Part shown: positions 5,906 to 20,000 of the stretch, piece after piece | How the letters are laid out: each line of letters opens with the position of its first letter | Position numbering within the stretch: position 1 is the stretch's first letter | IMG/VR virus record: IMGVR_UViG_3300037418_001250 | Origin: an uncultured virus (IMG/VR IMGVR_UViG_3300037418_001250) | Lineage: Duplodnaviria; Heunggongvirae; Uroviricota; Caudoviricetes | Length of the DNA: 20,000 nt | Reading direction: 5' to 3' (one strand) | The notes under the pieces: generated by a model | What the model saw: only the letters and a program-made list of their open reading frames with translations | Told to the model about the DNA's origin: nothing | Database searches by the model: none | Translations under genes and position numbers: made by a program

Positions 5906-5923
5906 GTTTTTGTGCGTGCAGCG

Positions 5924-5938
5924 TTTCTAAAACAGAAA
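5924..5938. promoter_or_regulatory. Operator-like palindrome TTTCT-AAAAC-AGAAA
   Basis: Intergenic, identical to 14635-14649. Confidence 0.65.
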
Positions 5939-5948
5939 GAGGCAAACT

Positions 5949-6239: not shown

Positions 6240-6730
6240 ACCGGGTCACGCTCATTGGCTTCGTCGGTGCGGACCCTGAAATCCGCGCCGCCGGCAGCGG
6301 CAACAAGGTTGCCAACTTCAATCTCGCCACCTCGAAGCGCTGGAAGGACAAACAGACCGGCGAGCAGAAGGAAAAAACCGAGTGGCATCGGATCATCTGC
6401 TGGGGCGACGGGCTCGTCGACGTGATCGGCAGGTACGTCCGGAAGGGCTCGCAGCTTCTCGTTGAAGGCGAGCTGCAGACGCGCAAGTGGACCGACAAGC
6501 AGAACATCGAGCGCTACTCGACGGAAATCGTCGTGCAGGGCTTCGACGGTCAGGTCCGGCTTCTCGATCGCGATAACTCGACGAGGCCGCCAGCGCCGCA
6601 GCAGCCACCGCAGGGCGCCAATCTCGGCGGCTCGAGCGATCAGCACGCCAGCAACATGGTTCCGGCTTCGGCACCAAGCGACGGGCCGCCGGAATGGCAT
6701 TCGCAGGTCAACAGCGAAATCCCGTTCTGA
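6236..6730 (+). CDS. ssb: Single-stranded DNA-binding protein
   Basis: MNRVTLIG.VGADPEIR, EKTEWHRI, KGSQLLVEGELQTRKW, C-terminal tip EIPF. Confidence 0.97.
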   Translation: MNRVTLIGFVGADPEIRAAGSGNKVANFNLATSKRWKDKQTGEQKEKTEWHRIICWGDGLVDVIGRYVRKGSQLLVEGELQTRKWTDKQNIERYSTEIVVQGFDGQVRLLDRDNSTRPPAPQQPPQGANLGGSSDQHASNMVPASAPSDGPPEWHSQVNSEIPF

Positions 6731-6762
6731 GGAAAGTTCCGCCCGTGCTCGAAGAGGCCCAG

Positions 6763-7494: not shown

Positions 7495-7673
7495 GCTGGG
7501 GTGAATTGCAAAAAGCCAACGGCCGCGTCGCGTGCCGCTGCCGGTCGTGCGGCCGAGAGATCGTCGTCGAGCCGAAGAAGATTTTGTCGATCAGTGGCGA
7601 GGCGTCGCTTTCCGAAGCGCTCGCGCTTTTGACGTGCCGCGTTTGCGGCACCCGGACGATAGAGGCGAAGTGA
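7491..7673 (+). CDS. Small Zn-ribbon protein
   Basis: CRSC...CRVC pairs in 60 aa; translationally coupled. Confidence 0.7.
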   Translation: MSWGELQKANGRVACRCRSCGREIVVEPKKILSISGEASLSEALALLTCRVCGTRTIEAK

Positions 7674-7674
7674 C

Positions 7675-8043
7675 ATGGGCGGAGAAAGACAGCGGCTGCC
7701 GGATCGGCGCGGCGGCGAAGTTTTGGAGGTCTACGCCGGAACGGCGGAAATCGGCATCAGCAAATGGATCGTCACGGTCGGCCGCCGTGGCAGGCTCGGG
7801 CTCGGGGAGGTCGCGGAAGTGTTTATCGCCTCCGGCAAGTCCGGCACCGACGTCAACATCATGGCCTTGGAGCTTGGCATTCTCGCCTCGCTCTGCCTGC
7901 AACACGGCGTCACCGCCGAGACCATCCGGCACGCCATGCCGCGCGATGACCAAGGCCGGCCGCAAGGCGTCATCGGCGAGCTGTTCGACGAATTGCAACG
8001 AGGCGAGAGGCGGAATTTCAAAGGGGTGGAGCAAACTGCATGA
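7675..8043 (+). CDS. Stand-alone TSCPD-domain protein (resembles C-terminal part of class II ribonucleotide reductase)
   Basis: 'RQRLPDRR...VTVG....EVFIASGKSGT......LGILASLCLQHGV..E.I' pattern. Confidence 0.75.
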   Translation: MGGERQRLPDRRGGEVLEVYAGTAEIGISKWIVTVGRRGRLGLGEVAEVFIASGKSGTDVNIMALELGILASLCLQHGVTAETIRHAMPRDDQGRPQGVIGELFDELQRGERRNFKGVEQTA

Positions 8044-8309
8044 AACGGGAAAACATCAAGGGTCTCGTCGATGAACGGCTGGCGGCCATCGGCTGCCCGT
8101 TGAGCAACCGCAACGTCAAGATCGTGCCGTCGCGGACCCGCATCGAGGTCGCCGTCGGTGATCGGCGGATGGTCATGGAGTTCAATTCGGGCCTCCCCGA
8201 GTGCGAGGTCAGATCGAAGATCGCCGACTTCGAGCGCCGGTACTTGGACTGCAAAAATCAGGTCGACCTCGAAGAGGCGATCGGCGACGTACTGGCGGCG
8301 GGGGAGTGA
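8040..8309 (+). CDS. Hypothetical protein (89 aa)
   Basis: ATGA overlap, SD GGAG, fits the operon. Confidence 0.7.
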   Translation: MKRENIKGLVDERLAAIGCPLSNRNVKIVPSRTRIEVAVGDRRMVMEFNSGLPECEVRSKIADFERRYLDCKNQVDLEEAIGDVLAAGE

Positions 8310-8314
8310 GGGCG

Positions 8315-8734
8315 ATGTGGCTTCAATTCATCGGCGTGCAGTGCTGCAATTGCGGCATACACTTTGGCCTTGAGAGCAGCCATCACGCGCTGCTCAAGCG
8401 GGACGGCGAGTGGTTTCATTGTCCGAACGGCCACAAGCAGCGCTATAGCGGCAATACCGAAAAGGAACAGTTGCGCCGCGAGCGCGACCAGCTCAGGCAG
8501 CGGCTTGCTCAGGTGGATGATCGCAATCGCGAGCTTCGCGATGCACGCGACGCCGCCGAGCGCCGCGTTGCGGCCGCCAAGGGGCAGATCACAAAACTCA
8601 AGAAGCGCGCCTCGGCCGGCACCTGCCCGTGCTGCAACCGGACGTTCCAGCAGCTCGCCGCGCACATGAAGCAGAAGCATCCCGATTTCGGCCCCAAGGT
8701 TGTCGATTTGGATGCGGCCAGGGGGAGAGCGTAA
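8315..8734 (+). CDS. Zn-binding / coiled-coil / C2H2-type finger protein
   Basis: ATG 8315; CCNC...CPNGH, heptad-rich centre, CPCC...H....H. Confidence 0.75.
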   Translation: MWLQFIGVQCCNCGIHFGLESSHHALLKRDGEWFHCPNGHKQRYSGNTEKEQLRRERDQLRQRLAQVDDRNRELRDARDAAERRVAAAKGQITKLKKRASAGTCPCCNRTFQQLAAHMKQKHPDFGPKVVDLDAARGRA

Positions 8735-8738
8735 GACG

Positions 8739-9143
8739 ATGGACGGTTTTGCAGATCAGCTCGACGTCTTCCGCCGCCACATGACGGAGGACGCCCACTA
8801 CCAGCTCGCGCAATTGCAGCAGCTCGACGCCGCTCTGAGCGAAGTCGATCAGCAGCTTTTGGATTATCTCAACGGCATGTTCCGCCGTCACGGCGAACGC
8901 CGCAGCGGCCTTATCATGCGGCTCGTCGAAGAGGCGCGGCGGTATGAGCTTCCGAGCTATCCTGAGAAACAAGGCGAAGAACGCCCAGGCGTGGCTCAGG
9001 GCGGCAATCTTGCGCGGCCGCGGTTTCTGGGAGGGGGAGAAATGCAGGAGGCGCCAGCGGCCCAGGACGGGGCGGCTGACGCGCCTGAGAATTGGGAAGG
9101 GTATCGCGGCCCCTACGAGGGCTGGCGGGTGCCGCATCAATAA
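8739..9143 (+). CDS. Hypothetical coiled-coil protein
   Basis: ATG 8739 after GGGGAG; last rightward gene before the terminator. Confidence 0.65.
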   Translation: MDGFADQLDVFRRHMTEDAHYQLAQLQQLDAALSEVDQQLLDYLNGMFRRHGERRSGLIMRLVEEARRYELPSYPEKQGEERPGVAQGGNLARPRFLGGGEMQEAPAAQDGAADAPENWEGYRGPYEGWRVPHQ

Positions 9144-9186
9144 AAATAGGGCGGCTTCCTGACCCGAATCAGAAAGCCGCCCCTTT
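9143..9186 (-). terminator. Intrinsic terminator between convergent operons (best on minus strand)
   Basis: Minus strand: GGGCGGCUUUCUGA-UUCGGG-UCAGGAAGCCGCCC (14-bp stem, one G-U; 9149-9182) then UAUUUUU; plus strand has one mismatch and CTTT. Confidence 0.85.
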
Positions 9187-9220
9187 GAACATCACAGCGG
9201 CCGGACTGGAGAGAACGGCG

Positions 9221-9436
9221 TCAGTGACGTTGCTCCTTATGTAGGGGCGTCCATAGCTCGTGTCCATCATCCATCGTCAGGACTTCCCAGGTTTTCCCGC
9301 CGCGGGTGACGTGCTGGACGGGCGGCCGCGAGCGCCACTCATCGAGCATTTTATCGCGCTGGCGAACCCGGATACTCGAGGCGATGGTCTGCGCGATGAT
9401 CGCGATGAGAAAGACCGCCAGAGCTTCGCCGATCAT
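9221..9436 (-). CDS. Small protein with N-terminal TM segment
   Basis: MIGEALAVFLIAIIAQTIA; ATGA overlap with upstream gene. Confidence 0.7.
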   Translation of the reverse strand: MIGEALAVFLIAIIAQTIASSIRVRQRDKMLDEWRSRPPVQHVTRGGKTWEVLTMDDGHELWTPLHKEQRH

Positions 9437-9744
9437 GGCTCGACCTTCTCCGAATATCGAGGGAGGAATCCCGCCATCAGCTTGCCGGTGCGGCGGTCGA
9501 TGTGGCGCCGGATGCCGAAGACGTCATGACTGAAATCGAAGTCGCCGGCATAGAGCAAGGCCCTGAGCGCCAAGGGGTTGCCGTTGCAGTGAACCGCCGT
9601 GATGTCCATCGCCAGCGAGACGCCGTCGATGGTGACGTCGGCTTCCTTGGCGAGCTTCAAGCTGCGTCGCACGATCATCCGGATCAGGATGCGATCTTCC
9701 GGCGTGACGTCGAAATTGACTTTGGCTTTCGCATTCATCTTCAT
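9433..9744 (-). CDS. DUF6874-like phage protein
   Basis: 'MDITAVHCNGNPL.L..LL.A.DFDFSHDVFGIRRHIDRRTGKL...FLPRY' recognised family pattern. Confidence 0.75.
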   Translation of the reverse strand: MKMNAKAKVNFDVTPEDRILIRMIVRRSLKLAKEADVTIDGVSLAMDITAVHCNGNPLALRALLYAGDFDFSHDVFGIRRHIDRRTGKLMAGFLPRYSEKVEP

Positions 9745-10235
9745 CCGTACACCACGTCCTTCAAGGTTACGAGTTGCAGGAAGACGTCGGCGGTGATGGC
9801 GTCGTCGTTCTCGGCCATGAAGTCGCCGAAGTGGCGGGCGTGTTTTTCCGCCATGAGCTTGAGCCCGGCGTCGAGTTCGGCGCGGGTGACGCGGTGGCGC
9901 TTGAGGTTGTCTTCGCTCTTTTTCAGGTTGAAGTATTCCGCCTCATCTTCGATCTCGTAGACGTCGACGGCGAAGTCGGATGATGCCCAAAGCCGCGCAT
10001 CGTTGTACCAGACAGTATTCGCCTCGAAGCCTTCCCAATCATCGTCGTCGATGCGCTGACCCTCGATGACGGCGTGACGGAAGCGGATGCCGCCGCACCA
10101 CGATCGCGTCATGTGGTTGCATTCGATGGCGTTGACGAAAAGATCGGCGATGCGTTCGGCCGGAATTTCGACCTTGGTGGCGATGATGAAGACGTCGGGT
10201 TTTTGTTCGGTACTTTCGATGGTTTCGGTCGTCAT
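9741..10235 (-). CDS. Acidic phage hypothetical protein (164 aa)
   Basis: Start placed at ATG 10235 by the GACTGGAGA motif; C-terminal 'DAITADVFLQL....DVVYG'. Confidence 0.75.
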   Translation of the reverse strand: MTTETIESTEQKPDVFIIATKVEIPAERIADLFVNAIECNHMTRSWCGGIRFRHAVIEGQRIDDDDWEGFEANTVWYNDARLWASSDFAVDVYEIEDEAEYFNLKKSEDNLKRHRVTRAELDAGLKLMAEKHARHFGDFMAENDDAITADVFLQLVTLKDVVYG

Positions 10236-10240
10236 GGCTT

Positions 10241-10263
10241 TCTCCAGTCTCAGGGTTAGAATT
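10241..10263 (-). repeat. Start-associated motif copy 1
   Basis: Minus: AAATTC-TAA-CCCTG-AGACTGGAGA-AAGCC-ATG. Confidence 0.85.
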
Positions 10264-10525
10264 TCTCGCGCGCAATGCACTCGCAGAGGTCGATGGCGAA
10301 CTGCATCATGTCGTTGTCCCGCATAATCCGGGCCTCAAGCACGATGGCTGAGACGACGAAGCCCTTTGCGGTTGAGAGCTTTTTCGCGATAAGGCGGCGC
10401 TCGTACTGGTTTCCCTGCACCCACTTGTTCAGCCAGTAGCGGGCGCGCGTTTCTCGCCGTTCGAGCCGCTTTTGCCGTTGGCTCGGCGGCTCCGCCGTAA
10501 TGTTTTCGGCCAGAAGGGAGGTCAT
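10256..10525 (-). CDS. Basic hypothetical protein (89 aa)
   Basis: SD GGAGG upstream; stop TAA is part of the motif. Confidence 0.7.
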   Translation of the reverse strand: MTSLLAENITAEPPSQRQKRLERRETRARYWLNKWVQGNQYERRLIAKKLSTAKGFVVSAIVLEARIMRDNDMMQFAIDLCECIAREKF

Positions 10526-10528
10526 GGC

Positions 10529-10936
10529 TCAGTATTCCTCCGCCAGCATGATCGTCAGCACGCGGGTTGTTTGCTTCGGGTCGGCTGGATCGTTGCCGCC
10601 GAACTCGAGTTTTTTGTCGTAGTAATCTATTCGCCAATAATAGCGGCCATCTTCAAAGTCGAAGGCCCCAAACTCTGCTTCGAAATACGGGTCGTTGTCG
10701 GCCGTGAACTCCTTGTAGTTACGGACCCTCCTTACGATCTCATGGCGCTTCCCGAACGGAAGAGTTGAGACGCCGTGACTGAATACAATGCGACCTCCGA
10801 TTAACGTCTCGCGAAAGCGGTTGTTGAGGGCGCGGATTTTCTTGGTTCGCGCGTCGGCAAATTCCTTGACGTTTTGCGCGTGCCGTTCGACCAAATAGGC
10901 TTGCTCGGCGGGGCCGCGATCTTCGTGGGGCTGCAT
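10529..10936 (-). CDS. DUF3768-like protein
   Basis: 'IRALNNRFR...F.ADNDPY.E.EFGAF......YWRIDYYD......DPADP..TTRVLTIMLAEEY'. Confidence 0.88.
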   Translation of the reverse strand: MQPHEDRGPAEQAYLVERHAQNVKEFADARTKKIRALNNRFRETLIGGRIVFSHGVSTLPFGKRHEIVRRVRNYKEFTADNDPYFEAEFGAFDFEDGRYYWRIDYYDKKLEFGGNDPADPKQTTRVLTIMLAEEY

Positions 10937-10941
10937 GATGG

Positions 10942-10971
10942 TCTCCAGTCTCGGGTTGCGGGTTAGAATTT
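10942..10971 (-). repeat. Start-associated motif copy 2
   Basis: Minus: AAATTC-TAA-CCCGC-AACCCG-AGACTGGAGA-CCATC-ATG. Confidence 0.85.
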
Positions 10972-11157
10972 GAAATCTTTGAGCCAGGACGGCCCAAAGT
11001 CATTTCGGAGCTGCCGCACGGCTGGGATATGTTCAGGGCGGAAGTCTGCCGCGCCGCCCTCCCAAACTCGGCGCATGTGCGTCTTCCACCGACGGCCGTA
11101 GCGGTCGACAAATGCGCCGATTGCGAGGATTTGTTCGTCGGTAAGTTTGCGTTCCAT
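10963..11157 (-). CDS. Hypothetical protein (64 aa)
   Basis: MERKLTDEQ...YGRRWK...LRNDFGPSWL; start after GGGAG. Confidence 0.7.
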   Translation of the reverse strand: MERKLTDEQILAIGAFVDRYGRRWKTHMRRVWEGGAADFRPEHIPAVRQLRNDFGPSWLKDFKF

Positions 11158-11159
11158 GC

Positions 11160-11510
11160 TCACGCGCGCTCCCTGGCCTGACGTTTCTCGATCTTGTCGA
11201 CGGCGCGAAAGATTTCTTCTTGCGATAGCCTCCAGCCGCGCTCCTGCGGCAGCCGCGCGACGACGACCCACTTGAATTGCTGGTAGAGCCGGAGCGCCAC
11301 GTCCTTGTCGCCGTAGGCGTCAGCGAGCAGCGCGAGGCTGAGCTGCGCTGGGCCGCTTCCGCCGTAGCCCCAATTGAAACCGTCGGGCGAATGGTTGACG
11401 AGGTCGCTGCGCGGGTTGAGCGGATAGAAGCGTCCCGTTGGCAGGTGGACGGAAACGTCCCGCCGTCCGAACGGGGTTTCGCCGCGGTAGGTTTTGAGCG
11501 CCTGGATCAT
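11160..11510 (-). CDS. DUF6166-like protein
   Basis: 'NHSPDGFNWGYGGSGPAQLSLALL.......A..LYQQFK'. Confidence 0.85.
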   Translation of the reverse strand: MIQALKTYRGETPFGRRDVSVHLPTGRFYPLNPRSDLVNHSPDGFNWGYGGSGPAQLSLALLADAYGDKDVALRLYQQFKWVVVARLPQERGWRLSQEEIFRAVDKIEKRQARERA

Positions 11511-12994
11511 TCTGCGGCCTCCTTGACGTCGGCGGCAGCGCGCTTTTTGAGCGCGTCGAGCTTGCTGGTGAGGTCTGGATGCACGTCGAGCTTTTCCTGC
11601 CCGCGCGTCGCCGCGACGTAGAACAGCATCAGCTCATCTGTCGGGATCGGCTTCTCGCCTTTCTCGGGGTCTTCCTTTTTCGAGACGCCGATCAGGAAGT
11701 CTTCGCAAAGCTTGACCTCGCCCCACTCGCGGCCCTTCGACTTGTGCCCTGTAGAAAGCACGACGTCGGCTTTCTTCTCGTCTTTGGGCAGGCCCTCGAA
11801 GGCATCCTTCAAGGCGTCGACGCCGTATTTCTCGACGAGGTTGACCCAGCCCGAAAGCTCCCGGTTGTCTTCGTCCTGCGCGGCGATCCTGACCTCGGCC
11901 CAATTTTTGTAGCCGAAGAACATCAGCGGATTGTCGACGGTCATGCCCGCCTGCAGCTTTTCGGTGGCGTCCAGGAGCGTCAGCATTTCGGCAACGCCAC
12001 CGACGATGAACGGCCGCTTGCCGGCTTCGAGCTGGCCGACAAGCTCTTCGATCAGCCGGGCGTTGGTGCGGGCGAGGATCGCCCGCGGGTTTGCGATGAT
12101 CTCCAGACTATCTGTCTTCTCCGGGTTGCCGGTCAGCGGCAGAGTTTCGCCGAGCATCGCAAGAATGCCGGTCGCGAAGCCCGCGATATTCGGGCCGAAG
12201 CGGAATGAGGTCGACAGCCGCCGTTCGATCTCGGTCGGCAATTCGACCATCGCGTTCATCGCCCCGCGCCACCTGTAGATCGATTGCCACTTGTCGCCGA
12301 CGGTGATGAGTTGCGCCCCTTGGTGCCGCATCAATTCCATGACGACGCCGTTGGTGTCCTGCGCCTCATCGAGCAGGATGAAGTCGCCGTCGATTTGCGG
12401 CTTTTCCATCGCCCACATTTTGAGATAGCCGTCGTGCGTCATCGGCAGCTTCGACGCCGGGTCGATCATTTGCGCCCAGAGCTGTTCGCCGTTGCGGACG
12501 ATGTCTTTCCTGAGCCCGAGCAGCAGGGGCGCCGCGAGCTTCGTCAGCTTGCCTTCGATGTGGCAGTGACGGAGCGTGATCTGATCGTCGCCGGAGCGCA
12601 TGAACTTCTGCACCGCTTCGAGCACGAGGCGGCCGTAGCTCCGTTCGGAAATGAAGAGGTCGTCGCCGTAGTCGCGCTTCCTGTAGCCGAGCTTCATCGC
12701 AATGAAGCCGCCGTTGAGGTTGCCGGTCATCTTGTCCATGCCGAAGCCGCGCTTGATGATCGAGCGGAAGGCGAGCGAGTGCATGGTCGAGCAATTGATC
12801 GTTCGCGGGAATTTCGACTTGGCTTCTTCCGCGATCGATTTGTTGAAGGCGACGTAGGTGCCGCGCCGGTCGGTGGCGTTGGCGAGAAGCTTCAAGGTCG
12901 ACGTCTTACCGGTTCCGGCATAGGCGTTAATGCGCAACTTCTTTCCGGTTTGGAAAGCTTCAACGCAAGCGGATTGCTGTGGTGTCGGCTGCAT
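11507..12994 (-). CDS. UvrD/Rep-like SF1 helicase
   Basis: AYAGTGKT, LDEAQD, VGDKWQSIYRWRGA, LSTSFRFG, ILARTN, STGHKSKGREW, FYVAATR. Confidence 0.95.
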   Translation of the reverse strand: MQPTPQQSACVEAFQTGKKLRINAYAGTGKTSTLKLLANATDRRGTYVAFNKSIAEEAKSKFPRTINCSTMHSLAFRSIIKRGFGMDKMTGNLNGGFIAMKLGYRKRDYGDDLFISERSYGRLVLEAVQKFMRSGDDQITLRHCHIEGKLTKLAAPLLLGLRKDIVRNGEQLWAQMIDPASKLPMTHDGYLKMWAMEKPQIDGDFILLDEAQDTNGVVMELMRHQGAQLITVGDKWQSIYRWRGAMNAMVELPTEIERRLSTSFRFGPNIAGFATGILAMLGETLPLTGNPEKTDSLEIIANPRAILARTNARLIEELVGQLEAGKRPFIVGGVAEMLTLLDATEKLQAGMTVDNPLMFFGYKNWAEVRIAAQDEDNRELSGWVNLVEKYGVDALKDAFEGLPKDEKKADVVLSTGHKSKGREWGEVKLCEDFLIGVSKKEDPEKGEKPIPTDELMLFYVAATRGQEKLDVHPDLTSKLDALKKRAAADVKEAAE

Positions 12995-13045
12995 GGCTCG
13001 GTGGCCCCTCTGTTTAGGTTGAAGACGTGAGCGTTAGCTTGTCCA

Positions 13046-13249
13046 TTACGCATCCTCGCGCATCGACAGGCCTGCTTCCAAAATGCCGACGACGATCGGA
13101 TCGAGGTAACGCGGCTCGATGGCGACGGCGCCGCCGATCCACATGACGTCGGGCGGCAAGTTCTCGTGGACCCAATCGATCGCGTCCGCCGTCAATGGCG
13201 CGAGCGTGACGATGGAGCCGTGGTAGGTGGCTTCGAAGTCTTTCGGCAT
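13046..13249 (-). CDS. Hypothetical protein (67 aa)
   Basis: SD GGAGG; fits the operon. Confidence 0.7.
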   Translation of the reverse strand: MPKDFEATYHGSIVTLAPLTADAIDWVHENLPPDVMWIGGAVAIEPRYLDPIVVGILEAGLSMREDA

Positions 13250-13252
13250 CGC

Positions 13253-13570
13253 TCAGCCCTCCCGTTTCATGGCGGCGAGAGCTTCGGCGGAGCCGCGCGG
13301 GTAAAGGCCGCCCTTGTCCATCCAGGTGCGAACTTTATCGGGTGAGCCCCAGCACTCGGACGGCGCATGGCGGTAGAGAAACTTCACGTAGTCGACGATA
13401 TGGTTGATGTTGGTGTCGTCGGCGTTCTGGCAGGACCGCTTGAGATCGTTTTCGAGGACTGCACTCAGGAACGAACCGACCGAGCGTCCAAGCTCAATGT
13501 AGCGGCGAAGTCCGGCGCGGCAGTGCTCGGGAATGAGTGACCAATCGGCGGTTTCAAAATCGTAAGGCAT
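13253..13570 (-). CDS. Phage hypothetical protein (105 aa)
   Basis: 'L.RYIE.G...GSFL.AVLENDL...AD..N....LY..AP..CWGS'; preceded by the motif. Confidence 0.8.
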   Translation of the reverse strand: MPYDFETADWSLIPEHCRAGLRRYIELGRSVGSFLSAVLENDLKRSCQNADDTNINHIVDYVKFLYRHAPSECWGSPDKVRTWMDKGGLYPRGSAEALAAMKREG

Positions 13571-13577
13571 TGTGAGG

Positions 13578-13603
13578 TCTCCAGTCTCGTTTCGGGTTGA
13601 AGA
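13578..13603 (-). repeat. Start-associated motif copy 3
   Basis: Minus: TGA-TCTTC-AACCCG-AAACG-AGACTGGAGA-CCTCACA-ATG. Confidence 0.85.
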
Positions 13604-14506
13604 TCAGGCGGCAAGGTCGAAGAGGTCGGCGAGCGTCGCTTGCTCGCGTGGCACCTTCGGCATTTTGTTGGGACGCGCGAACGCTGGCGGCGGAATGTTG
13701 CAGCCGAGCACGGCGGCGCTGTCGATCGCGGCCTTGATGGCCTTGTTCTGCAGCCGCGCGAGCCGCTTGGCGCGCTTTTCATCGAAGGCGCCGGAGGCCC
13801 AGAAAAGCGGCTGGCCGCCTTCGTTCCAGACGCGGCCGAAGCTCTCGACTTTGCACTTCGGCTCAATGAAGCCGTTGAAGTAGGTCAGGGCATCCTTGAC
13901 GGTCTCGAAGCGGCAGCACCGCTTCTCGTTATCGACCTCGAAGGCATAGACGTGGCCGTCGATGCAATGGCGCACGTCGTATTTGTCGGAGCGGACCGAG
14001 GGGCGAAACTCGCGCCAGTTCCAGCGGTCGTTTTTGCGGATCGAGAGCGGAATGTCGATCTGGTTGGCGTAACGTGGTAATGCCCGCTTGGCGAGTTCGA
14101 CGCCTTCGAGCCAATCCTGCCCGTCGCCGTCGCTCGATACCGAAAAGCCCTTGCCGTCGGCACTGATGCTTTCGAGATAGGCGAGGATCGCGACGACGGC
14201 GAGGTCGTAGGGTTTTTGCGCCGTCTTGCAGAAGGCCCAGCCGAGCCGGCCGGGCGTTTGGTAGTCTTCGAGGCGACGCACGCGCTCGATGTAGAAGGTC
14301 TCGTGCCCGTCGTCGCCGATGCCGTTGAAGCGGATTTTGTCGCCGGTCACTTCCGGCTGCGTGCCAGCTTCGTCCCATTCGGCGGCGAGCGCGACGCCCT
14401 GGACGTGCTGCACGTCCTTGAGGATCAGGCGAACGTCGCGGCAGAGTTCATCCCATTCGTCGCCGGTGAAGTCCCGCAATTGCGTCCAGTAATGCGTATA
14501 GCCCAT
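13604..14506 (-). CDS. Hypothetical protein (300 aa) starting MGYTHYW
   Basis: Start set at ATG 14506 by the motif; contains HETF, FCKT..KPYD, VSSDG..DW. Confidence 0.8.
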   Translation of the reverse strand: MGYTHYWTQLRDFTGDEWDELCRDVRLILKDVQHVQGVALAAEWDEAGTQPEVTGDKIRFNGIGDDGHETFYIERVRRLEDYQTPGRLGWAFCKTAQKPYDLAVVAILAYLESISADGKGFSVSSDGDGQDWLEGVELAKRALPRYANQIDIPLSIRKNDRWNWREFRPSVRSDKYDVRHCIDGHVYAFEVDNEKRCCRFETVKDALTYFNGFIEPKCKVESFGRVWNEGGQPLFWASGAFDEKRAKRLARLQNKAIKAAIDSAAVLGCNIPPPAFARPNKMPKVPREQATLADLFDLAA

Positions 14507-14514
14507 AATCGAGG

Positions 14515-14533
14515 TCTCCAGTCTCATCGGGTT
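14515..14533 (-). repeat. Start-associated motif copy 4
   Basis: Minus: AACCCG-ATG-AGACTGGAGA-CCTCGATT-ATG; a hairpin (14541-14560) lies just upstream. Confidence 0.85.
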
Positions 14534-14605
14534 GAAAGGTCCGGGGCATTCGCGCCCCGGCAGTTGACCGCCCGTCCTTTGCGTGTGGAGGAAGCGCGGC
14601 GGTAG

Positions 14606-14649
14606 TTTCGAAAAGCGAAAGTTCAAGTCTGAACTTTCTAAAACAGAAA
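14606..14649. promoter_or_regulatory. Two operator-like palindromes around a probable leftward promoter
   Basis: TTTCG-AAAAG-CGAAA (14606-14620) and TTTCT-AAAAC-AGAAA (14635-14649); minus-strand TTGAAC lies between them. Confidence 0.65.
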
Positions 14650-14651
14650 GG

Positions 14652-14855
14652 CTAGAGCGAAACAAAAACCGAGCGGATGCACTTGTGGAAATAGCCGCCG
14701 GCACTCTTGGCGCTCTTGAGCCCGCGAAAAACCTCTTCCGGGACGTCCTGGTAGGTCGTGGCGTGGCCCGAGTTGAAGGTGATCGTCAGATGTTTTTTCT
14801 TCGGGTCGTAGGTCGCATACTTGAGCGCGGCGCTTTCAAATTCAGCGGTCAGCAT
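14652..14855 (-). CDS. KTSC-domain protein
   Basis: 'SAALKYATYD....LTITFNSG....YQDVPEEVFRGL..AKSAGGYFHKCIR'. Confidence 0.9.
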   Translation of the reverse strand: MLTAEFESAALKYATYDPKKKHLTITFNSGHATTYQDVPEEVFRGLKSAKSAGGYFHKCIRSVFVSL

Positions 14856-14857
14856 GG

Positions 14858-15064
14858 TCAAAGCTCCATTTGTTGCCAGTGATCCCGCAGCACTTCGGCG
14901 TGCCAATACTGCGGGGTTTCTTCGATCAGCACGCCGGTCTCGGGTTCAAGCGGGTCGCGGACAAAGACGCCAAAATGCGTCGGCTCATTCCATTCGTTGC
15001 GGATAAGATCGATCCAGACGTCGACGCGACCGCGGCCGTCGGGGCCGAGGTAAATTCCCGGCAT
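14858..15064 (-). CDS. Hypothetical protein (68 aa)
   Basis: MPGIYLGPDG..; TGATG coupling at 15064. Confidence 0.65.
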   Translation of the reverse strand: MPGIYLGPDGRGRVDVWIDLIRNEWNEPTHFGVFVRDPLEPETGVLIEETPQYWHAEVLRDHWQQMEL

Positions 15065-15363
15065 CAAAAGGCCCTTTCCAAATTGGAACGGCGCAAGGCA
15101 TGAAGACGCTCGCGCGCCGTCATGGCGCAAAGCGCCTGATGGAACCGGGCGTTGGCCCAGGCGGCGATTTCGTTGGCGTCGCCCGCCTCCAGAGCGCGGC
15201 GGAAATTCTTGCGCCACATGCGGGAAAGTTCGAGTTCGGCGTGGTACTCATCGAGCAGGCGGCCGTAGGGCAACGGCGCGTTCGGCCAGTCGGCGGCAGA
15301 GACTTGCCAGCGGGAGGCGCGAAGCTCGGCGAACATCGCGCGGATGCGTTCGGAAATGGTCAT
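15064..15363 (-). CDS. Hypothetical protein (99 aa)
   Basis: Preceded by motif copy 5. Confidence 0.75.
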   Translation of the reverse strand: MTISERIRAMFAELRASRWQVSAADWPNAPLPYGRLLDEYHAELELSRMWRKNFRRALEAGDANEIAAWANARFHQALCAMTARERLHALRRSNLERAF

Positions 15364-15400
15364 CGGGTTCTCCAGTCTTCGGGTTTCGGGTTACTCGGGT
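15364..15400 (-). repeat. Start-associated motif copy 5 with four ACCCG units
   Basis: Minus: ACCCGAG-TAA-CCCGA-AACCCGA-AGACTGGAG-AACCCG-ATG. Confidence 0.85.
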
Positions 15401-15627
15401 AAAATTTCTTCCTCGTAGCAGCGCTGGCCGCGTGCGATCATCGCGTCGGCGTCGCCGTAGACGTCGCCCTTGCGGTCACAAAGGTGTTTGAGGTCTGCGA
15501 TCAAATCGCTGATGGCATCTTCGGGGTCGGTGCCGGTTTCGTCCATGAAGGCTTGCAGCGCGACCTCCGCCCAAGAGGCGCGGTCGTCGTTCATGTTCTC
15601 AGGATCAGGCGGCAATTTTTTCGGCAT
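15391..15627 (-). CDS. Small acidic hypothetical protein (78 aa; internal start of the 171-aa ORF)
   Basis: MPKKLPPDPENMNDDRASWAEVAL..F....DLIADLKHLCD; ATG 15627 preceded by motif copy 6. Confidence 0.75.
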   Translation of the reverse strand: MPKKLPPDPENMNDDRASWAEVALQAFMDETGTDPEDAISDLIADLKHLCDRKGDVYGDADAMIARGQRCYEEEILPE

Positions 15628-15906
15628 GGTCGTTTCTCCAGTCTTCGGGTTAGTCGCGGTCGCGTTGCTGGCGCGGGCTTCGAGGACGCCGACAATGGCG
15701 GCACCCCTGAACCATGCAGGGAAGTCGTCACCCCACTTGCGCGCCGTTCTGAGATAGGCGCGGGCGGCGGTTTCAGATTTGAAGGGAAAGAAAAAATCGC
15801 GAGCTGCGGTTCGCGTTCTGAATTTGGCGGGCACGCCGCTCCAGCAAGAGCCGGTGCGGTCGATGATCGTGCCGTCGGTCAGACGAATTGCGAATTGAGC
15901 TTCCAT
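15391..15906 (-). CDS. 171-aa ORF: 93-aa N-terminal module read in frame through the motif into the 78-aa protein
   Basis: ATG 15906 has its own shortened motif (AACCCG-GAGA-CCAGCCAC-ATG, 15915-15924); no in-frame stop before 15391. Confidence 0.55.
   Translation of the reverse strand: MEAQFAIRLTDGTIIDRTGSCWSGVPAKFRTRTAARDFFFPFKSETAARAYLRTARKWGDDFPAWFRGAAIVGVLEARASNATATNPKTGETTMPKKLPPDPENMNDDRASWAEVALQAFMDETGTDPEDAISDLIADLKHLCDRKGDVYGDADAMIARGQRCYEEEILPE
15635..15652 (-). repeat. Start-associated motif copy 6
   Basis: Minus: TAA-CCCGA-AGACTGGAGA-AACGACC-ATG. Confidence 0.85.
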
Positions 15907-15949
15907 GTGGCTGGTCTCCGGGTTGCGGGCTTTCCAGTGCCCCTATTGG

Positions 15950-15964
15950 TTTCTGATTTGGAAA
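15950..15964. promoter_or_regulatory. Operator-like palindrome TTTCT-GATTT-GGAAA
   Basis: About 45 bp upstream of the leftward ATG at 15906. Confidence 0.55.
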
Positions 15965-15981
15965 GCATAAGGCAGGGCAGG

Positions 15982-16035
15982 AACCAATGCAACAAAAGAA
16001 ACAAACTCAACAAATGCAACAATAAGAACAAGAGA
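15982..16035 (+). repeat. Six 9-bp-phased AAC(A/C)A units
   Basis: AACCAATGC, AACAAAAGA, AACAAACTC, AACAAATGC, AACAATAAG, AACAAGAGA at 15982, 15991, 16000, 16009, 16018, 16027. Confidence 0.8.
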
Positions 16036-16040
16036 AGAAC
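16026..16040. promoter_or_regulatory. Alphaproteobacterial LexA (SOS) box candidate
   Basis: GAAC-AAGAGAA-GAAC = GAAC-N7-GAAC in an intergenic AT-rich region. Confidence 0.6.
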
Positions 16041-16115
16041 ATAACATTACAAATAGTTAATGTTTATGGCTGGGGCCTTGGCCTTGCCGCCCCGCCCCCA
16101 AATCACCTAGCCCTT

Positions 16116-16326
16116 GGATAGCCTCGGCGCGTAACGGGGTTCGAGCTTGCAGAGCCGCCGAAGTCGAGGGCCTTCGGTGGCTCTCGCCGTTTCTGGATGC
16201 AACACGTTCAACGCCGCCATCAGCCATCACCCCGCCATAGGCACAAAGGGCATGATGCGCCGGTTACGAACCGTCCGTGCTTCCGGGTCAGCCAAAGAAA
16301 AGGGTGCTCAGTCCGAGCACCCGTTT
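16116..16326 (+). ncRNA. Candidate structured non-coding RNA
   Basis: Possible promoter TTGCCG(16084)-N18-TAGCCC(16108); 13-bp stem 16151-16184 with G-U on the plus strand; ends at hairpin 16302-16322; no credible ORF. Confidence 0.35.
16294..16322 (-). terminator. Intrinsic terminator downstream of the exonuclease gene
   Basis: GGGTGCTC/GAGCACCC stem (16302-16322) followed on the minus strand by TTTTCTTT. Confidence 0.8.
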
Positions 16327-16361
16327 CACGTGAAGCAACTCGTTGCCGTTTTAGAAAGCCT

Positions 16362-17279
16362 CTAGGCCGCGACCGTTTCGATCTTCTCGATCAACTGCTC
16401 GAACTCCAGCTCTTCGAAAAAGTCGAACACCTTGCGATAGTCGCGCTCTTGGTTTGCGATGGTCGCGAAGTCGAACTTGCCCGGCAGACAGTCGGGCCTA
16501 AGCTTCGTCAATTCGAGGTTCAAGAGCAGACGCTTTTCCATGCGCGCGATCCTTGCGATGATCGCGCTCTTGCCCTTGAGCTGTGAAATCGGAAAGTCAG
16601 GATCGAGAACGGTTGGATGAGCAGCGAGCGCCGCCTCCTTGCACGCCGCGATCATCTGCGCGAATGTCGGATGGTCGTTGATGAGGCTCGCGGCCGTCTT
16701 CGGCCCGACCTTCGGGACGCCGGGGACATTGTCGGCGACGTCGCCCTGCAGCGCCAGAGCTTCGCTGATGCGGTCCGGCATGACGCCCCACTTGGCGAAA
16801 GCTTCGGCTTCGCCGTAGAACTTTCGTTCGACCGGCCGGTATTGCGTCACGCCCGGCCGAATGAGCGCCATCAGGTCCTTGTCTTCGGAGAGGATCAGAA
16901 CTTCGCCGCCCTCCGCCACGAAGGCTTCCGTCAACCCGGCGATCACGTCGTCGGCTTCCTGCCCCATGACGCGGACGACGGGGATGCCGAGAGCTTCGCA
17001 GGCGCGGTCGGCGAGCGGGAATTGCGAAATGAGGTCATCGTCGCGCTCGCTCCGGTTGTTCTTGTACTCAGGATCGATCTGGACGCGGCCTGAGCGGCCG
17101 GCATCGCCGACGGCGACCCAATGGGTCGCCTCGAACTGGCGCGCCCTGGTCATCCACAAGAGACTATCGCAGAGGCCGTAGACGGCGCCGCAGGCAACGC
17201 CACCGGAGGTCGCGAGCTTCGGCAGGGCGTGGTAGGCGCGGTGAATGAAGGCCGAGTGATCGAGCAAGTTTAGCCGCAT
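16362..17279 (-). CDS. Stand-alone 5'-3' exonuclease / flap endonuclease (Pol I N-terminal domain family)
   Basis: LLD.S.FIHRAYHA, YK.NR, EADDVIA, SEDKDL, GDVADNVPGVPKVGPKTA (H3TH). Confidence 0.93.
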   Translation of the reverse strand: MRLNLLDHSAFIHRAYHALPKLATSGGVACGAVYGLCDSLLWMTRARQFEATHWVAVGDAGRSGRVQIDPEYKNNRSERDDDLISQFPLADRACEALGIPVVRVMGQEADDVIAGLTEAFVAEGGEVLILSEDKDLMALIRPGVTQYRPVERKFYGEAEAFAKWGVMPDRISEALALQGDVADNVPGVPKVGPKTAASLINDHPTFAQMIAACKEAALAAHPTVLDPDFPISQLKGKSAIIARIARMEKRLLLNLELTKLRPDCLPGKFDFATIANQERDYRKVFDFFEELEFEQLIEKIETVAA

Positions 17280-17494
17280 GGTTCCCCCTTGAGCGTTTTG
17301 AGAAGATCGCGCCCGGCATCGGTCAACGATGCGTAGGCGATTTCGCCGTCACGGCCGCGTGGCCCGACGGCAACGAGACCCTTGCCCGCGAGAGCGTCGA
17401 GGGTCTGGCCGTGGACGGGCTTGAGCAAGGGATCATCCTCGCTCAAGCGTTCGAGCAGGTAGCGTTCGAAGATCGGCAGATCAGCTACGGCCAT
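17270..17494 (-). CDS. Small protein, possible winged-helix
   Basis: 'TLDALAGKGLV......ASLTDAGR'; SD GGAAGG. Confidence 0.65.
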   Translation of the reverse strand: MAVADLPIFERYLLERLSEDDPLLKPVHGQTLDALAGKGLVAVGPRGRDGEIAYASLTDAGRDLLKTLKGEPCG

Positions 17495-17717
17495 GAACGC
17501 CTTCCATGCGTTGAAGCGGCATGTTCCGGCGTGCGGCATGGCCGCAACAAACCTTGTCCGGTTCGGAGTGGCAGGCCCAGGCGGTACTGTTGGGGCCGCA
17601 GATGGCAGCGATCTCGCCCACCGAAGGAAGGCAGCCGAGATTGTAAGCCATTTCTGTGGTCGGCTCGCCGACGTTGAATGGGCAACCAGAGCAATAGCCT
17701 TTGTGGACCTCACTCAT
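17481..17717 (-). CDS. Cys-rich hypothetical protein (78 aa)
   Basis: CSGCPF, GCLPS, WACHS, CCGH; ATGA overlap. Confidence 0.7.
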   Translation of the reverse strand: MSEVHKGYCSGCPFNVGEPTTEMAYNLGCLPSVGEIAAICGPNSTAWACHSEPDKVCCGHAARRNMPLQRMEGVHGRS

Positions 17718-18001
17718 GGCGCGAGCTTCGCGCTTCGATGCACGATCACTTCGTCTTTCCAGGCGGCAAACGTCATGCCGCACTTCGGGCATTCGACCGC
17801 TGTCGCCAACCAGTCGACGCCCTCATGCTTGGCGCTTTCAAGGCAATGCGGACAGCAGTATTCATCGCCCGCATTGGTGTGATCGGCAAAGCCGATGTAT
17901 TTGAGCACGTCGCTCGCCTCTTCGTGCTCGCCGCATTTTTCGGCGCGGTGAAATTCGCGGCCTTGGAAGAAGCAGCCGCAGGGCAATGGTGTCGTTGTCA
18001 C
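17714..18001 (-). CDS. Zn-ribbon protein (95 aa, GTG start)
   Basis: SD GAGGAG, GTGA overlap; CPHC...CPKC. Confidence 0.7.
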   Translation of the reverse strand: MTTTPLPCGCFFQGREFHRAEKCGEHEEASDVLKYIGFADHTNAGDEYCCPHCLESAKHEGVDWLATAVECPKCGMTFAAWKDEVIVHRSAKLAP

Positions 18002-18246
18002 GATGTGGTCTCCTCTTTGTGCTTGTCGGCCTCGTCGAAAAAATCTTCGGCGTTGTCGGCATTTTGCGCCATGAGGCGGACGACGTCGCCAATGACCATT
18101 TCGTCGCTGCATTGATGGCAGAGACCGGGCGCACAAACATCGAGTGTGTCGTAAGCTTTCTCGATGGCGTCACGTGCATTGTCGGCTTCAACTTCACCGA
18201 GCGGCGCCGTCAAATCGATGACGGCGATGATTTGATATTTTCCCAT
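17998..18246 (-). CDS. Acidic hypothetical protein (82 aa)
   Basis: 'EVEADNARDAIEKA', CHQC; fits the operon. Confidence 0.7.
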   Translation of the reverse strand: MGKYQIIAVIDLTAPLGEVEADNARDAIEKAYDTLDVCAPGLCHQCSDEMVIGDVVRLMAQNADNAEDFFDEADKHKEETTS

Positions 18247-18247
18247 G

Positions 18248-18550
18248 TCACTTCACCCGCTTGTTGGCGATGCGAAACTCTTTTCCGACGGCGGCGAGCG
18301 CGCCGGTCATCGTGTAGTGCTGCGGGCACCGGGTATCGCCCTTGCGCCAAGCGCTGAGTGTCGATGCGCCGATGAGGCCGTTCGACATTTTTGCGACCTC
18401 CGCCGGCTTCATATCGGCGACGGCGTCGAGCACGTCCCGCAACGCTGGGTCACGGCGCTGAATGTTTTGCTGCCGCTTGACGAATTGCCGGGCCTTGTGA
18501 GCTTCCTTCGCGGTTTTCGAGCGATAGAGCGGCTTATTGATCTTGAGCAT
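18248..18550 (-). CDS. XRE-like HTH protein
   Basis: 'MKPAEVAKMSNGLIGASTLSAWRKGDTRCP...TM..AL.AVG'. Confidence 0.7.
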   Translation of the reverse strand: MLKINKPLYRSKTAKEAHKARQFVKRQQNIQRRDPALRDVLDAVADMKPAEVAKMSNGLIGASTLSAWRKGDTRCPQHYTMTGALAAVGKEFRIANKRVK

Positions 18551-18571
18551 TGAGGGCTTCCCTTTTTGGTT

Positions 18572-18799
18572 TTAGGACTTTGTAAATTTGAGCATTCCGA
18601 CGGCGTGACCGTCGCTGTCATGCAGTTCAGCGTCGCCTAGTTTCTGGTTGATCTGCATGTCTCCGAGGGCGTCGTTAATGGCATCGAGAACGCAGCTAAC
18701 CTCGGCCAGCATGAGATCGATTTTTGAGGCGGGTTCCTCGAGGTCTTCGACGCGAGAGAAGGCGGGTGATGAGCAGTCAATTTCGATTGTCAGCTTCAT
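18572..18799 (-). CDS. Hypothetical protein (75 aa)
   Basis: SD AAGGA; 'MKLTIEID.SSPAF....LHDSDGHAVG'. Confidence 0.7.
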   Translation of the reverse strand: MKLTIEIDCSSPAFSRVEDLEEPASKIDLMLAEVSCVLDAINDALGDMQINQKLGDAELHDSDGHAVGMLKFTKS

Positions 18800-18968
18800 T
18801 TGATTTTCCTTTTTGAGATCGCCGTGCAGTGCGCGCTATCTCCCAGCGCATACCGGGAGATAGCTTTTCGAAATCGGATTGCGTGCCGTTGAATGTGCCG
18901 GGCGGCAGGTCGTCGACCGTGGGCGTCGGCTCGGACGGCTGATACGTCCAGAACGAAGCCCCGGTCAT
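18777..18968 (-). CDS. Hypothetical protein (63 aa)
   Basis: ATGA overlap at 18965-18968, SD GGAGG. Confidence 0.6.
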   Translation of the reverse strand: MTGASFWTYQPSEPTPTVDDLPPGTFNGTQSDFEKLSPGMRWEIARTARRSQKGKSNEADNRN

Positions 18969-19216
18969 CGGTTCCGCCTCCAATCTGACCCGAAGGTTTC
19001 CGTCATCATCACGCGGTCGTAATGGTCGGCATCGGATCGATTGATGAAAATTGGCAGATAGGGCTTTGGTAACTCGCTGCCATCAATGTCGTAGGCAACT
19101 TTGCCGAAGCGGGCAGTCGTGATGCCATTCGCCTTGAGCCATTCGAGCCGCGCGCTGTCGGTGCGGGCATTGCCGATGAAAATTTCATCGGCTTCGATCT
19201 TCTCATGATGCGACAT
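18965..19216 (-). CDS. Hypothetical protein (83 aa)
   Basis: ATG 19216 after GGGAG. Confidence 0.7.
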   Translation of the reverse strand: MSHHEKIEADEIFIGNARTDSARLEWLKANGITTARFGKVAYDIDGSELPKPYLPIFINRSDADHYDRVMMTETFGSDWRRNR

Positions 19217-19220
19217 CGGT

Positions 19221-19979
19221 CTATCTCCCGATGCGAAGCTGACCGCCACCGACTTTGCCGCCGCCGAGATCGACCCGGCCGCCGGCGGCTTGACCGGCGT
19301 GATAGGCGCTCGCCGATCTGACGCTGCTCGACCGCGACGTCGTGCGCAGGTTGAGGCCCTGCTCGCGGCAGTAGTCGCGATACTTGGTCGAGACGACCTG
19401 ATCCTTGACGACGACCAGCGAACGCCCCGTCACGCGATGCGCTTGGTCGGCAGCTTCACGCGCCCGGCGCATGTCGTTGATGCGGTTGCAGACGCGGGTG
19501 CAGAAGCCGGTCGCAAACGACGCCCGGATGGTGCGGCCGTTGACGTTGCGGTTGCGCTCGGGGCTCTTCATGTAGCGCGCCGCCTCGGTGTCGAGCGACA
19601 AGACCAGCATGGCCAGCATGTCCATCGCGAGGCGGGTTTCTTCGAGCGAACCGAAGAAGACCACGTTGCGGTCCCGGTCGAGATAGGTTTTGCAGTTGAA
19701 GTACCGCGCCACCGGCACCGCGCACCAGCCGACGGCCTCGTGCTGCGTCGTCGACGCGGCGCTGCGGGTGAATTTCTTGCGCCGCGCCCCATAGCGGTCT
19801 TCGCTGACTTCCTTTTCGACGTCGGTGTAGGTGAGGTCGTATTCCTGCATCAGCTTGTCGGCGGCTTCCGCGGCGTTCATCGCTTCCGCTTCGGTGCAGC
19901 CGTTGGCTTCGGTCATGGCGAGCAGGGCGCGGATTTTGGCGAGCAGCTTTTCGCGCTTGGCTTGGTTATCGGTCGTCAT
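19221..19979 (-). CDS. DUF2786-domain phage protein
   Basis: 'KLLAKIRALLAM....CTEAEA.NAAEAADKLMQEY', 'R.SF..GF', 'AYHAGQAAG..VDL'; preceded by GACTGGAGA at 19987-19995. Confidence 0.88.
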   Translation of the reverse strand: MTTDNQAKREKLLAKIRALLAMTEANGCTEAEAMNAAEAADKLMQEYDLTYTDVEKEVSEDRYGARRKKFTRSAASTTQHEAVGWCAVPVARYFNCKTYLDRDRNVVFFGSLEETRLAMDMLAMLVLSLDTEAARYMKSPERNRNVNGRTIRASFATGFCTRVCNRINDMRRAREAADQAHRVTGRSLVVVKDQVVSTKYRDYCREQGLNLRTTSRSSSVRSASAYHAGQAAGGRVDLGGGKVGGGQLRIGR

Positions 19980-20000
19980 CGTCGTTTCTCCAGTCGTTTT

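Follow-up and report, generated by a model that had tools for sequence, protein, structure and literature searches.

A start-associated word at uncoupled gene junctions of an uncultured Caudoviricetes phage, a candidate translation module analogous to the start-associated sequences of Cluster K mycobacteriophages

The element studied here, a short sequence word that recurs a few nucleotides before start codons, lies in a 20-kb stretch of DNA (the window, meaning the whole stretch analysed, to which all motif counts refer) from the ~67-kb genome of an uncultured member of the Caudoviricetes (IMG/VR record IMGVR_UViG_3300037418_001250), and its closest described counterpart is the start-associated sequence (SAS) of the Cluster K mycobacteriophages, known since 2011 from that one phage group. 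According to the passages that Pope et al. (2011, PMC3203893) devote to it, the SAS is asymmetric, stands in one orientation 3 to 7 bp before mostly ATG starts, is limited to non-structural genes, sometimes includes the upstream stop codon, is conserved beyond its pairing with 16S rRNA and is rare in the host; the same passages describe for the K1 phages a single reverse SAS to which no gene start is attached. Sections of papers from 2024 and 2025 (PMC11373665 and PMC12699233) still call the function of the SAS undefined. A second family of repeated phage sites, the stoperators of mycobacteriophage L5 and Cluster A, is presented in sections of a further paper (PMC9283540) as asymmetric double-stranded DNA sites on the scale of a 13-mer that are bound by the immunity repressor, lie in intergenic spaces and have an orientation tied to transcription. 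From the sequence of the window, we propose with moderate confidence that the element may be an analogue of the SAS, that is, a phage-private, start-associated translation module that is placed at uncoupled gene junctions and kept under sequence-specific constraint.

Exact GACTGGAGA occurs eight times in the window compared to a mean of 0.10 in 200 dinucleotide-preserving shuffles, none of which reaches eight. Seven of these copies are on the minus strand (10241-10249, 10942-10950, 13578-13586, 14515-14523, 15369-15377, 15635-15643, and 19987-19995), all of them 5 to 8 nt upstream of an ATG (10235, 10936, 13570, 14506, 15363, 15627, and 19979, respectively), and six have an AACCC(G) box 0 to 5 nt upstream of the core; the upstream box of the 19979 copy is not visible because the end of the window cuts that copy. 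The full pattern AACCC-N0-9-AGACTGGAGA-N5-8-ATG is found six times versus 0.00 expected, and AACCCG alone is mildly enriched (20 versus 12 expected, with 4 of 200 shuffles reaching 20). An earlier inspection of the letters alone (the sequence-only reading) had placed the element at these starts, and its coordinates are right; the shortened copy that it saw before 15906 and the degenerate one before the gene for a UvrD-like helicase are also as it claimed (Table 1). Its fourfold AACCCG at 15364-15400 is indeed multiplied but consists of three exact units plus one TACCCG. It had further seen no element before rightward genes, and no gene does follow one, yet the plus strand has an eighth exact copy of GACTGGAGA (9204-9212), which lies where the two arms of the window converge, in a spacer of 58 nt.

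The sole Shine-Dalgarno (SD) candidate of the motif-bearing genes is GGAG, which lies 6 to 9 nt from the ATG inside the invariant word (G/A)AGACTGGAGA. In the alignment, the 9-mer core is identical across the seven minus-strand copies beside SD-ATG and box-core spacers that vary in sequence as well as in length; two sites have a doubled or tripled box. At four sites the TAA of the previous gene forms the first three letters of TAACCC. Copies show mosaic pairwise likeness (for example, 13570/14506, 15627/19979, and 10235/10936), and the decayed copy before the UvrD-like gene and the 13570 copy have TCTTCAACC and AAAC.AGA in common. A motif-like AACCCGAGACCGG is also present at 14933-14946 on the minus strand, within the coding region of a 68-aa gene (14858-15064) and with no start after it, and is either chance or a relic.

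The placement of the copies follows a simple positional rule. The window consists of two convergent arms, with rightward genes at 1-9162 and leftward genes at 20000-9221, and the leftward arm, once its small genes are re-examined, contains at least two units, of which the motif-rich one runs from 15906 to 9221 and has 16 gene junctions. The element is found at all eight junctions that have a real gap or in-frame read-through, as six full copies (before 15627, 15363, 14506, 13570, 10936, and 10235), one short copy (before 15906) and one decayed copy (before 12994), and at none of the eight junctions that overlap or are at most 3 nt apart (before 15064, 14855, 13249, 11510, 11157, 10525, 9744, and 9436); by our own arithmetic, the one-sided chance of such a split is 1 in 12,870. 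Since every uncoupled junction of this unit carries the element, each element heads a group of one to three coupled genes. The intergenic spaces that carry copies are mostly 20 to 33 nt long, and in the 145-nt gap before the 14506 copy there is a GC-rich hairpin (CCGGGGC-GCGAAU-GCCCCGG followed by ACCUUUC, ~14541-14560, minus strand), which may be an internal attenuator or terminator of the unit. At the 15627 copy the TAA is out of frame, so that the open reading frame (ORF) from 15906 continues through the motif into the next module; the resulting ORF 15391-15906 (minus strand) is a 171-aa in-frame fusion (...ATNPKTGETT-M...) in which residues 101-168 alone match phrog_3963, and both the long product and the 78-aa product are possible.

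The sequence-only reading had the element punctuate the leftward array as a whole, which is true of the unit from 15906 to 9221. The starts at 18799, 18550, 18246, and 17279 are without it, which means that the element is not a property of all leftward genes, and the upstream leftward unit has the core at 19979 only. Two of these starts, 18550 (18550-18572) and 18799 (18799-18820), both on the minus strand, have an A-rich, AAAAAGG-type context (AAAAAGGGAAG and AAAAAGGAAAA, respectively); this A-rich context comes closer to complementing the whole alphaproteobacterial 16S tail, and the leftward arm thus has two ribosome-binding "dialects." Between the two units, an intrinsic terminator (16322-16302) comes after the exonuclease gene, and beyond it lie 455 nt of non-coding DNA up to the ATG at 15906, the first gene after this region. 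The part of it at 15930-16100 is a candidate promoter/operator of the motif-bearing unit. This AT-richer stretch contains, on the minus strand, four 9-bp-periodic AACAA-type repeats, especially at 15982-16031, and TTGTTGCATT occurs twice on the sense strand.

These features resemble the Cluster K SAS in several respects. Both elements contain an SD core, stand a few nucleotides before mostly ATG starts in one orientation, sometimes include the upstream stop codon, are rare in host genomes (here, those of candidate host relatives) and have one reverse copy away from gene starts; moreover, seven of the eight exact copies here are co-oriented with leftward accessory and DNA-metabolism genes, as the SAS is restricted to non-structural genes, although this restriction is seen only in part because the window has no structural genes. 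On the other hand, the SAS consensus GGGATAGGAGCCC, with up to two deviations allowed, does not describe our word, (G/A)AGACTGGAGA plus AACCC(G), GGAG alone being common to the two, and the element is for this reason an analogue and not a member. The extended SAS (ESAS) places 17-bp imperfect inverted repeats upstream of about half of the sites, whereas the element here has a direct, variably spaced AACCC(G) box. The host phylum differs as well, the present phage being, to judge from its GcrA gene and homologues, of alphaproteobacterial type, and the element is known from one genome. The analogy drawn by the sequence-only reading is thus sound for geometry, orientation and host rarity and fails for the consensus and the inverted repeats.

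How much of the conservation goes beyond ribosome binding depends on pairing with the 16S rRNA. Against a 16S 3' tail (GGATCACCTCCTTTCT) from one alphaproteobacterial genome reached by chance, which may not be the tail of the host, the motif pairs through AGA and through GGAG, with energies of -8.0 to -8.6 kcal/mol, and the window's non-motif starts span -5.9 to -12.6 kcal/mol. As an SD, the motif is of average strength and does not surpass its neighbors. The bases that do not pair with this possibly foreign tail are the invariant C and T (where AA would pair), the last A, and AACCCG. Conservation beyond the SD, as the sequence-only reading had it, would apply to those core bases that stay unpaired and are invariant beside diverged spacers; AGA is pairable with this 16S tail. 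The translation-initiation regions are open, seven of eight being less stable than their own shuffles (z from +0.63 to +1.92; the eighth, -0.16), and neither a consistent secondary structure around the copies nor inverted repeats flanking them were found.

A plain ribosome-binding cassette would need no reader: an A/C-rich open linker plus GGAG would allow ribosomes leaving one gene to restart on the following one, and the identity of the copies would stem from the copying of junctions (~30 nt) by duplication or gene conversion during the addition of genes. The lack of structure in seven of eight initiation regions, the fusion of stop codon and box at four junctions, the presence of the element exactly where overlap coupling is missing, the subfamilies of copies with common flanks, and the pairability of AGA..GGAG with the 16S tail would all fit such a cassette. 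We nevertheless consider it rather unlikely, given that 63 core positions (9 nt in each of seven copies) are unchanged beside fully diverged spacers, that the unpaired C and T are invariant even though AA would pair better, that the SD is merely average in strength, and that the exact reverse copy in a gene-free spacer would be left unexplained.

The word is also rare among candidate relatives of the host. Among 61 genomes of the Rhizobiales, the order to which a Pararhizobium genome belongs, 42 have GACTGGAGA-N5-8-ATG, and no genome has more than 8 copies; of 401 genomes of this order, 11 contain the bipartite word, each in a single copy, versus 9 matches of the reversed control, which is chance level. 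A 17-mer of the word gave single matches only, in 76 genome stretches and 14 IMG/VR stretches, with no locus having more than two cores per strand, and a looser pattern gave single chance matches among the IMG/VR matches listed. One stretch (G044) in which 17 nt (GACTGGAGAACCCGATG) equal the core, spacer, and ATG of the 15363 copy was discarded as chance, being without the box and without a protein in common with the window. Judging from these searches, the motif does not belong to host usage across the genomes covered.

Variation among strains and relatives provides a second view on constraint. In the co-occurring strain variant X3, a contig over 13213-15805 (2.6 kb) has 16 differences, none of them within the four motif copies that it covers. 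The 14506 copy has three of them at a distance of no more than 8 nt, two in its spacer (14507 and 14508) and one, 14539, on the upstream side of its box, and this sparing of the copies would lend weak support to constraint. The X3 form is also without 17998-18247 (250 nt, exactly one 82-aa gene, phrog_9642), with CCA in its place and the motif at neither end; apart from this joint (17997->18248), most of the joints have sides of ~20 nt and are probably from other organisms, and these were not used. More distant relatives were few. Scanning IMG/VR and the species genomes with single proteins, namely the UvrD-like protein and P0001 (a UvrD homologue at 81% identity), gave no match. Profile scans yielded at least 160 UvrD loci, in which, among the matches listed, only a distant SSB in two is otherwise common with the window, and at least 80 primase loci, with at most one further replication gene in common among the matches listed. 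Three IMG/VR loci at 60 to 62% primase identity, obtained with a back-translated peptide pattern, have GcrA, initiator, primase and SSB in common with the window. A motif scan of related phages, which the sequence-only reading had suggested, could be run on these three, and in none of them is there the word, the array genes or a repeated start-associated 9- to 10-mer of their own. Across all the relatives obtained, neither the array nor the word is present.

These comparisons bear on the idea, also raised in the sequence-only reading, that the copies are short homology linkers, that is, DNA-level recombination points for swapping groups of one to three genes with the ribosome-binding site (RBS) riding along. 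Repeated intergenic modules have been proposed for the shuffling of gene groups in the case of the promoter-early stem-loop modules of T4-type phages and the "linker" sequences of lambdoid phages; those are promoter- or terminator-sized modules or gene-boundary homologies, in contrast to the SD-embedded word here, for which no shuffling was observed. Consistent with linkers, the groups of one to three coupled genes behind the elements belong to unrelated families, boxes are locally multiplied, the in-frame module fusion of 15906/15627 falls exactly at the motif with phrog_3963 matching the downstream module only, and the neighbors of the UvrD-like gene differ in 160 of 160 loci among the matches listed. 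However, strains were seen to differ in gene content only once, by the deletion of 17998-18247 in X3, and neither end of it has the motif; the relatives obtained offer no positive case (the word is in none of the three loci at 60 to 62% primase identity), and linkers have no need of a fixed distance of 5 to 8 nt to the ATG. We judge linkers to be unlikely.

The constraint on the non-GGAG bases would be explained if a sequence-specific reader recognized the word on the mRNA, in which case the translation of all group-leading genes in this early/accessory operon could be set or shut off together. A translational control site shared by these genes, as put forward in the sequence-only reading, would be in line with the anatomy of the element (invariant non-SD bases, open initiation regions, uncoupled junctions, and an antisense copy). 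There is precedent for such logic in the RegA and RegB proteins of phage T4, where one factor acts on the GGAG-containing initiation regions of many early genes for a joint shut-off; RegA and RegB targets have only loose common sequence features, in contrast to the invariant 9- to 11-mer and second box here, and no gene resembling regA or regB was detected among those of the window. The joint control proposed here would thus have a logic like that of RegA/RegB and an anatomy like that of the Cluster K SAS. A phage or host RNA-binding protein may be the reader, the only candidates in the window being the GcrA-like and KTSC-domain proteins.

The best candidate for a reader on the basis of sequence would be the 3' untranslated region (3'UTR) of the operon itself, whose hairpin displays UCUCCAGUC just before the terminator. 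When read on the leftward transcript, the plus-strand copy (9212-9204) is UCUCCAGUC, the exact antisense of the invariant core, and the 3'UTR has the order stop codon of the last gene (9221), hairpin (9219-9200), 16-nt spacer, and terminator (9183-9148). As RNA, these 85 nt fold at -36.7 kcal/mol (z = -3.97). The apical loop of the terminator, UUCGGGU (9168-9162), is in turn the antisense of ACCCGAA, which is present in three boxes, with ACCCGA in five. Among 1992 81-nt windows on both strands, and with the trivially complementary plus strand at the motif sites set aside, the 3'UTR is the only place outside the motif sites that has a 9-mer complementary to seven translation-initiation regions; in 200,000 shuffles of the 81-nt 3'UTR, 103 reach seven targets and 183 reach at least six. 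Bacterial small RNAs derived from 3'UTRs or borne on terminators have a displayed seed that is complementary to RBSs, a spacer, and a U-tailed intrinsic terminator. The layout here is the same, with UCUCCAGUC as a putative seed that complements seven initiation regions and with the terminator and its AUUUUUAUU tail present, except that the putative targets would be seven genes of the same operon, marked by a phage-supplied word. We tentatively suggest, as a possibility that is doubtful at present, that a 3'UTR RNA of ~80 nt, with loops antisense to both halves of the word, pairs with the RBSs and shuts off the early/accessory operon; such pairing would mask the RBSs as the transcript builds up.

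Several observations weigh against these proposals. The small hairpin is weak (-6.6 kcal/mol, z = -0.72), and RNAduplex gives -19.7 to -24.4 kcal/mol for the 3'UTR with the initiation regions of motif genes versus -7.0 to -26.8 kcal/mol with those of non-motif genes and -16 to -31 kcal/mol with those of rightward genes, so that the motif genes are not separated from the others; by eye, complementarity ends at the 9-mer, although two copies have a bulged 4 bp in addition. In the 3'UTR, the differences listed for the X3 contig are three substitutions and three single-base deletions at 9186-9198 and one substitution at 9220, with no listed change at 9199-9219, but since the list leaves out 6 of the 17 differences (three of the ten substitutions and three of the seven gaps), a change in the hairpin is possible and its constancy is not proven. 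As for the constraint on the word, the mosaic likeness of the copies indicates common descent, and part of the core identity may hence be history and not selection; 7 of the 10 bases of AGACTGGAGA are pairable with the 16S tail, which makes the excess over an RBS smaller than raw conservation implies; and, with no array-bearing relative among those obtained, conservation rests on one genome and its ~99%-identical strains.

The reverse copy also has a place in a reading of the element as stoperator-like DNA sites, that is, asymmetric repressor sites that halt elongation, as in mycobacteriophage L5 and Cluster A. All eight exact copies follow the local direction of transcription, including the plus-strand copy that ends the rightward arm, and they are located in short intergenic spaces; many asymmetric intergenic copies oriented with transcription are a feature of both systems. 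Stoperators are also found in promoters and have no fixed relation to a start codon or SD, in contrast to the element here, whose fixed, SD-like distance to the ATG and embedded GGAG are foreign to them. Furthermore, no copies are present among the rightward genes (1-9162) or in the 455-nt region with its candidate promoter (15930-16100), the variable spacing of box and core is a poor fit to a rigid DNA-binding site, and Pfam detects no repressor or helix-turn-helix family among the proteins of the window, which is part of the ~67-kb genome. Stoperator-like function is in our view quite unlikely.

Least probable, and in our view very unlikely, is that the copies serve as promoters recognized by an RNA polymerase or sigma factor of the phage or, alternatively, as RNA-processing sites at which polycistronic mRNA is cut before each RBS. 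Either function would suit a word of ~25 nt that is conserved, strand-specific and placed in front of genes, and the motif may look to the eye somewhat like the promoters of single-subunit RNA polymerases. Yet the two halves are separated by indels of 0 to 5 nt and by box duplications, the intergenic spaces measure just 20 to 33 nt, a scan found no sigma-70-like hexamers at the copies, no Rfam match was obtained, and the window shows no candidate for a polymerase or nuclease of this kind. The reading that we prefer continues to be that of a start-associated translation module.

If the word is read by an antisense loop, the same design may explain the Cluster K SAS. Mycobacterium phage Anaya has 16 forward SAS copies and one reverse copy (59870-59882), which is located in a 385-nt non-coding gap behind a terminator and sits in the 10-nt loop of a GC hairpin on the sense transcript. 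Matches to this non-coding region (59682-60066, ~380 nt near the right genome end; L295 44683-45067; loci L460-L467) exist in 182 phage records. Of nine phages aligned, six have the anti-SAS decamer in exact form, two (Ekdilam and Krueger) have an altered form and one (Yuna) lacks it, which neither proves nor refutes pairing. The hairpins of the region show apparent compensatory changes, for example, GCTCCGAAATGGAG versus GCCCCGAAATGGGG in Guanica15, and some records annotate small ORFs across it.

The coordinates of the copies and of the neighboring features are collected in Table 1. The window has a G+C content of 60.6%, and, beyond the genes tabulated, the leftward arm encodes the Pfam families DUF2786/DUF7168, DUF6166, DUF3768, and DUF6874 as well as numerous small proteins that match no family. 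A host of probable alphaproteobacterial type is indicated by the GcrA gene and by the helicase homologues (in Rhizobium, Bradyrhizobium, and Hyphomicrobium); by eye, the motif word does not contain GANTC, the CcrM/GcrA site. Near-unchanged copies of window DNA are present in rhizosphere and soil metagenome runs, and none of the runs listed for the stretch is an RNA run. A megablast search of 9000-20000 against 50,697 phage records gave no DNA-level match to known phages, no tRNAs were found in the window, and an Rfam search returned nothing above noise. In the ORF 2978-4186, CAGCCACCG is repeated exactly six times, on five occasions as AACAGCCACC, over a span of 290 nt (3383-3668, plus strand), with a seventh copy at 6602 and a reverse one at 1315 (in total, 8 versus 0.21 expected); these may be origin iterons within the initiator gene or a proline-rich coding repeat.

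Table 1. Motif copies, 3'UTR structures and genes with family assignments in the 20-kb window.
Feature	Position	Strand or direction	Composition or basis
Small hairpin	9200..9219	-	GCCG-UUCUCUCCAGUC-CGGC; in 3'UTR of leftward operon; loop holds UCUCCAGUC
Strong bidirectional intrinsic terminator	9148..9183	-	16-bp stem; AUUUUUAUU tail on minus strand; ends leftward operon
Full copy	10233..10258	-	TAA (stop of gene 10256-10525) fused to AACCC, TGAGACTGGAGA, 6-nt spacer, ATG 10235 (164 aa, phrog_2355)
Full copy, doubled box	10934..10965	-	TAACCCGCAACCCGAGACTGGAGA, 6-nt spacer, ATG 10936 (DUF3768 gene); TAA is stop of 64-aa gene 10963-11157
Decayed copy, UvrD-like helicase gene	12992..13025	-	TCTTCAACCTAAACAGAGGGGCCACCGAGCC-ATG 12994; contains TCTTCAACC..AGAGGGG (13005-13025)
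Full copy	13568..13606	-	TGA (stop of 300-aa gene), TCTTC, AACCCGAAACGAGACTGGAGA, 8-nt spacer, ATG 13570 (105-aa gene)
Full copy	14504..14533	-	AACCCGATGAGACTGGAGA, 8-nt spacer, ATG 14506 (300-aa gene)
Full copy, multiplied boxes	15361..15401	-	TACCCGAGTAACCCGAAACCCGAAGACTGGAGA, AACCCG as spacer, ATG 15363 (99-aa gene); TAA is stop of gene 15391-15627
Full copy	15625..15652	-	TAACCCGAAGACTGGAGAAACGACC-ATG 15627 (78 aa, phrog_3963); TAA out of frame
Shortened copy	15904..15924	-	AACCCGGAGACCAGCCAC-ATG 15906; short element is AACCCGGAGACC
Core copy	19977..19995	-	GACTGGAGAAACGACG-ATG 19979 (DUF2786/DUF7168 gene)
GcrA-like regulator gene	810-1463	rightward	family/phrog match
DnaD/replication-initiator-like gene	2978-4186	rightward	family/phrog match
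Primase-helicase gene	4211-5905	rightward	family/phrog match
SSB gene	6236-6730	rightward	family/phrog match
UvrD-like helicase gene	11507-12994	leftward	Pfam
KTSC-domain protein gene	14652-14855	leftward	Pfam
5'-3' exonuclease (FEN) gene	16362-17279	leftward	Pfam

A case unrelated in sequence to the SAS, in a phage of another bacterial phylum and with a clear-cut rule of position, speaks for private ribosome-binding words as a strategy general among phages instead of a mycobacteriophage curiosity, and the antisense copy in the 3'UTR provides a concrete hypothesis for how signals of the SAS type could be read. If the 3'UTR does pair as suggested, the private ribosome-binding word and the RNA that reads it would both come from the phage. 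More generally, if the module works as proposed, phages would mark a class of genes for joint translational control independently of host signals, and such a word would be useful as an orthogonal expression switch.

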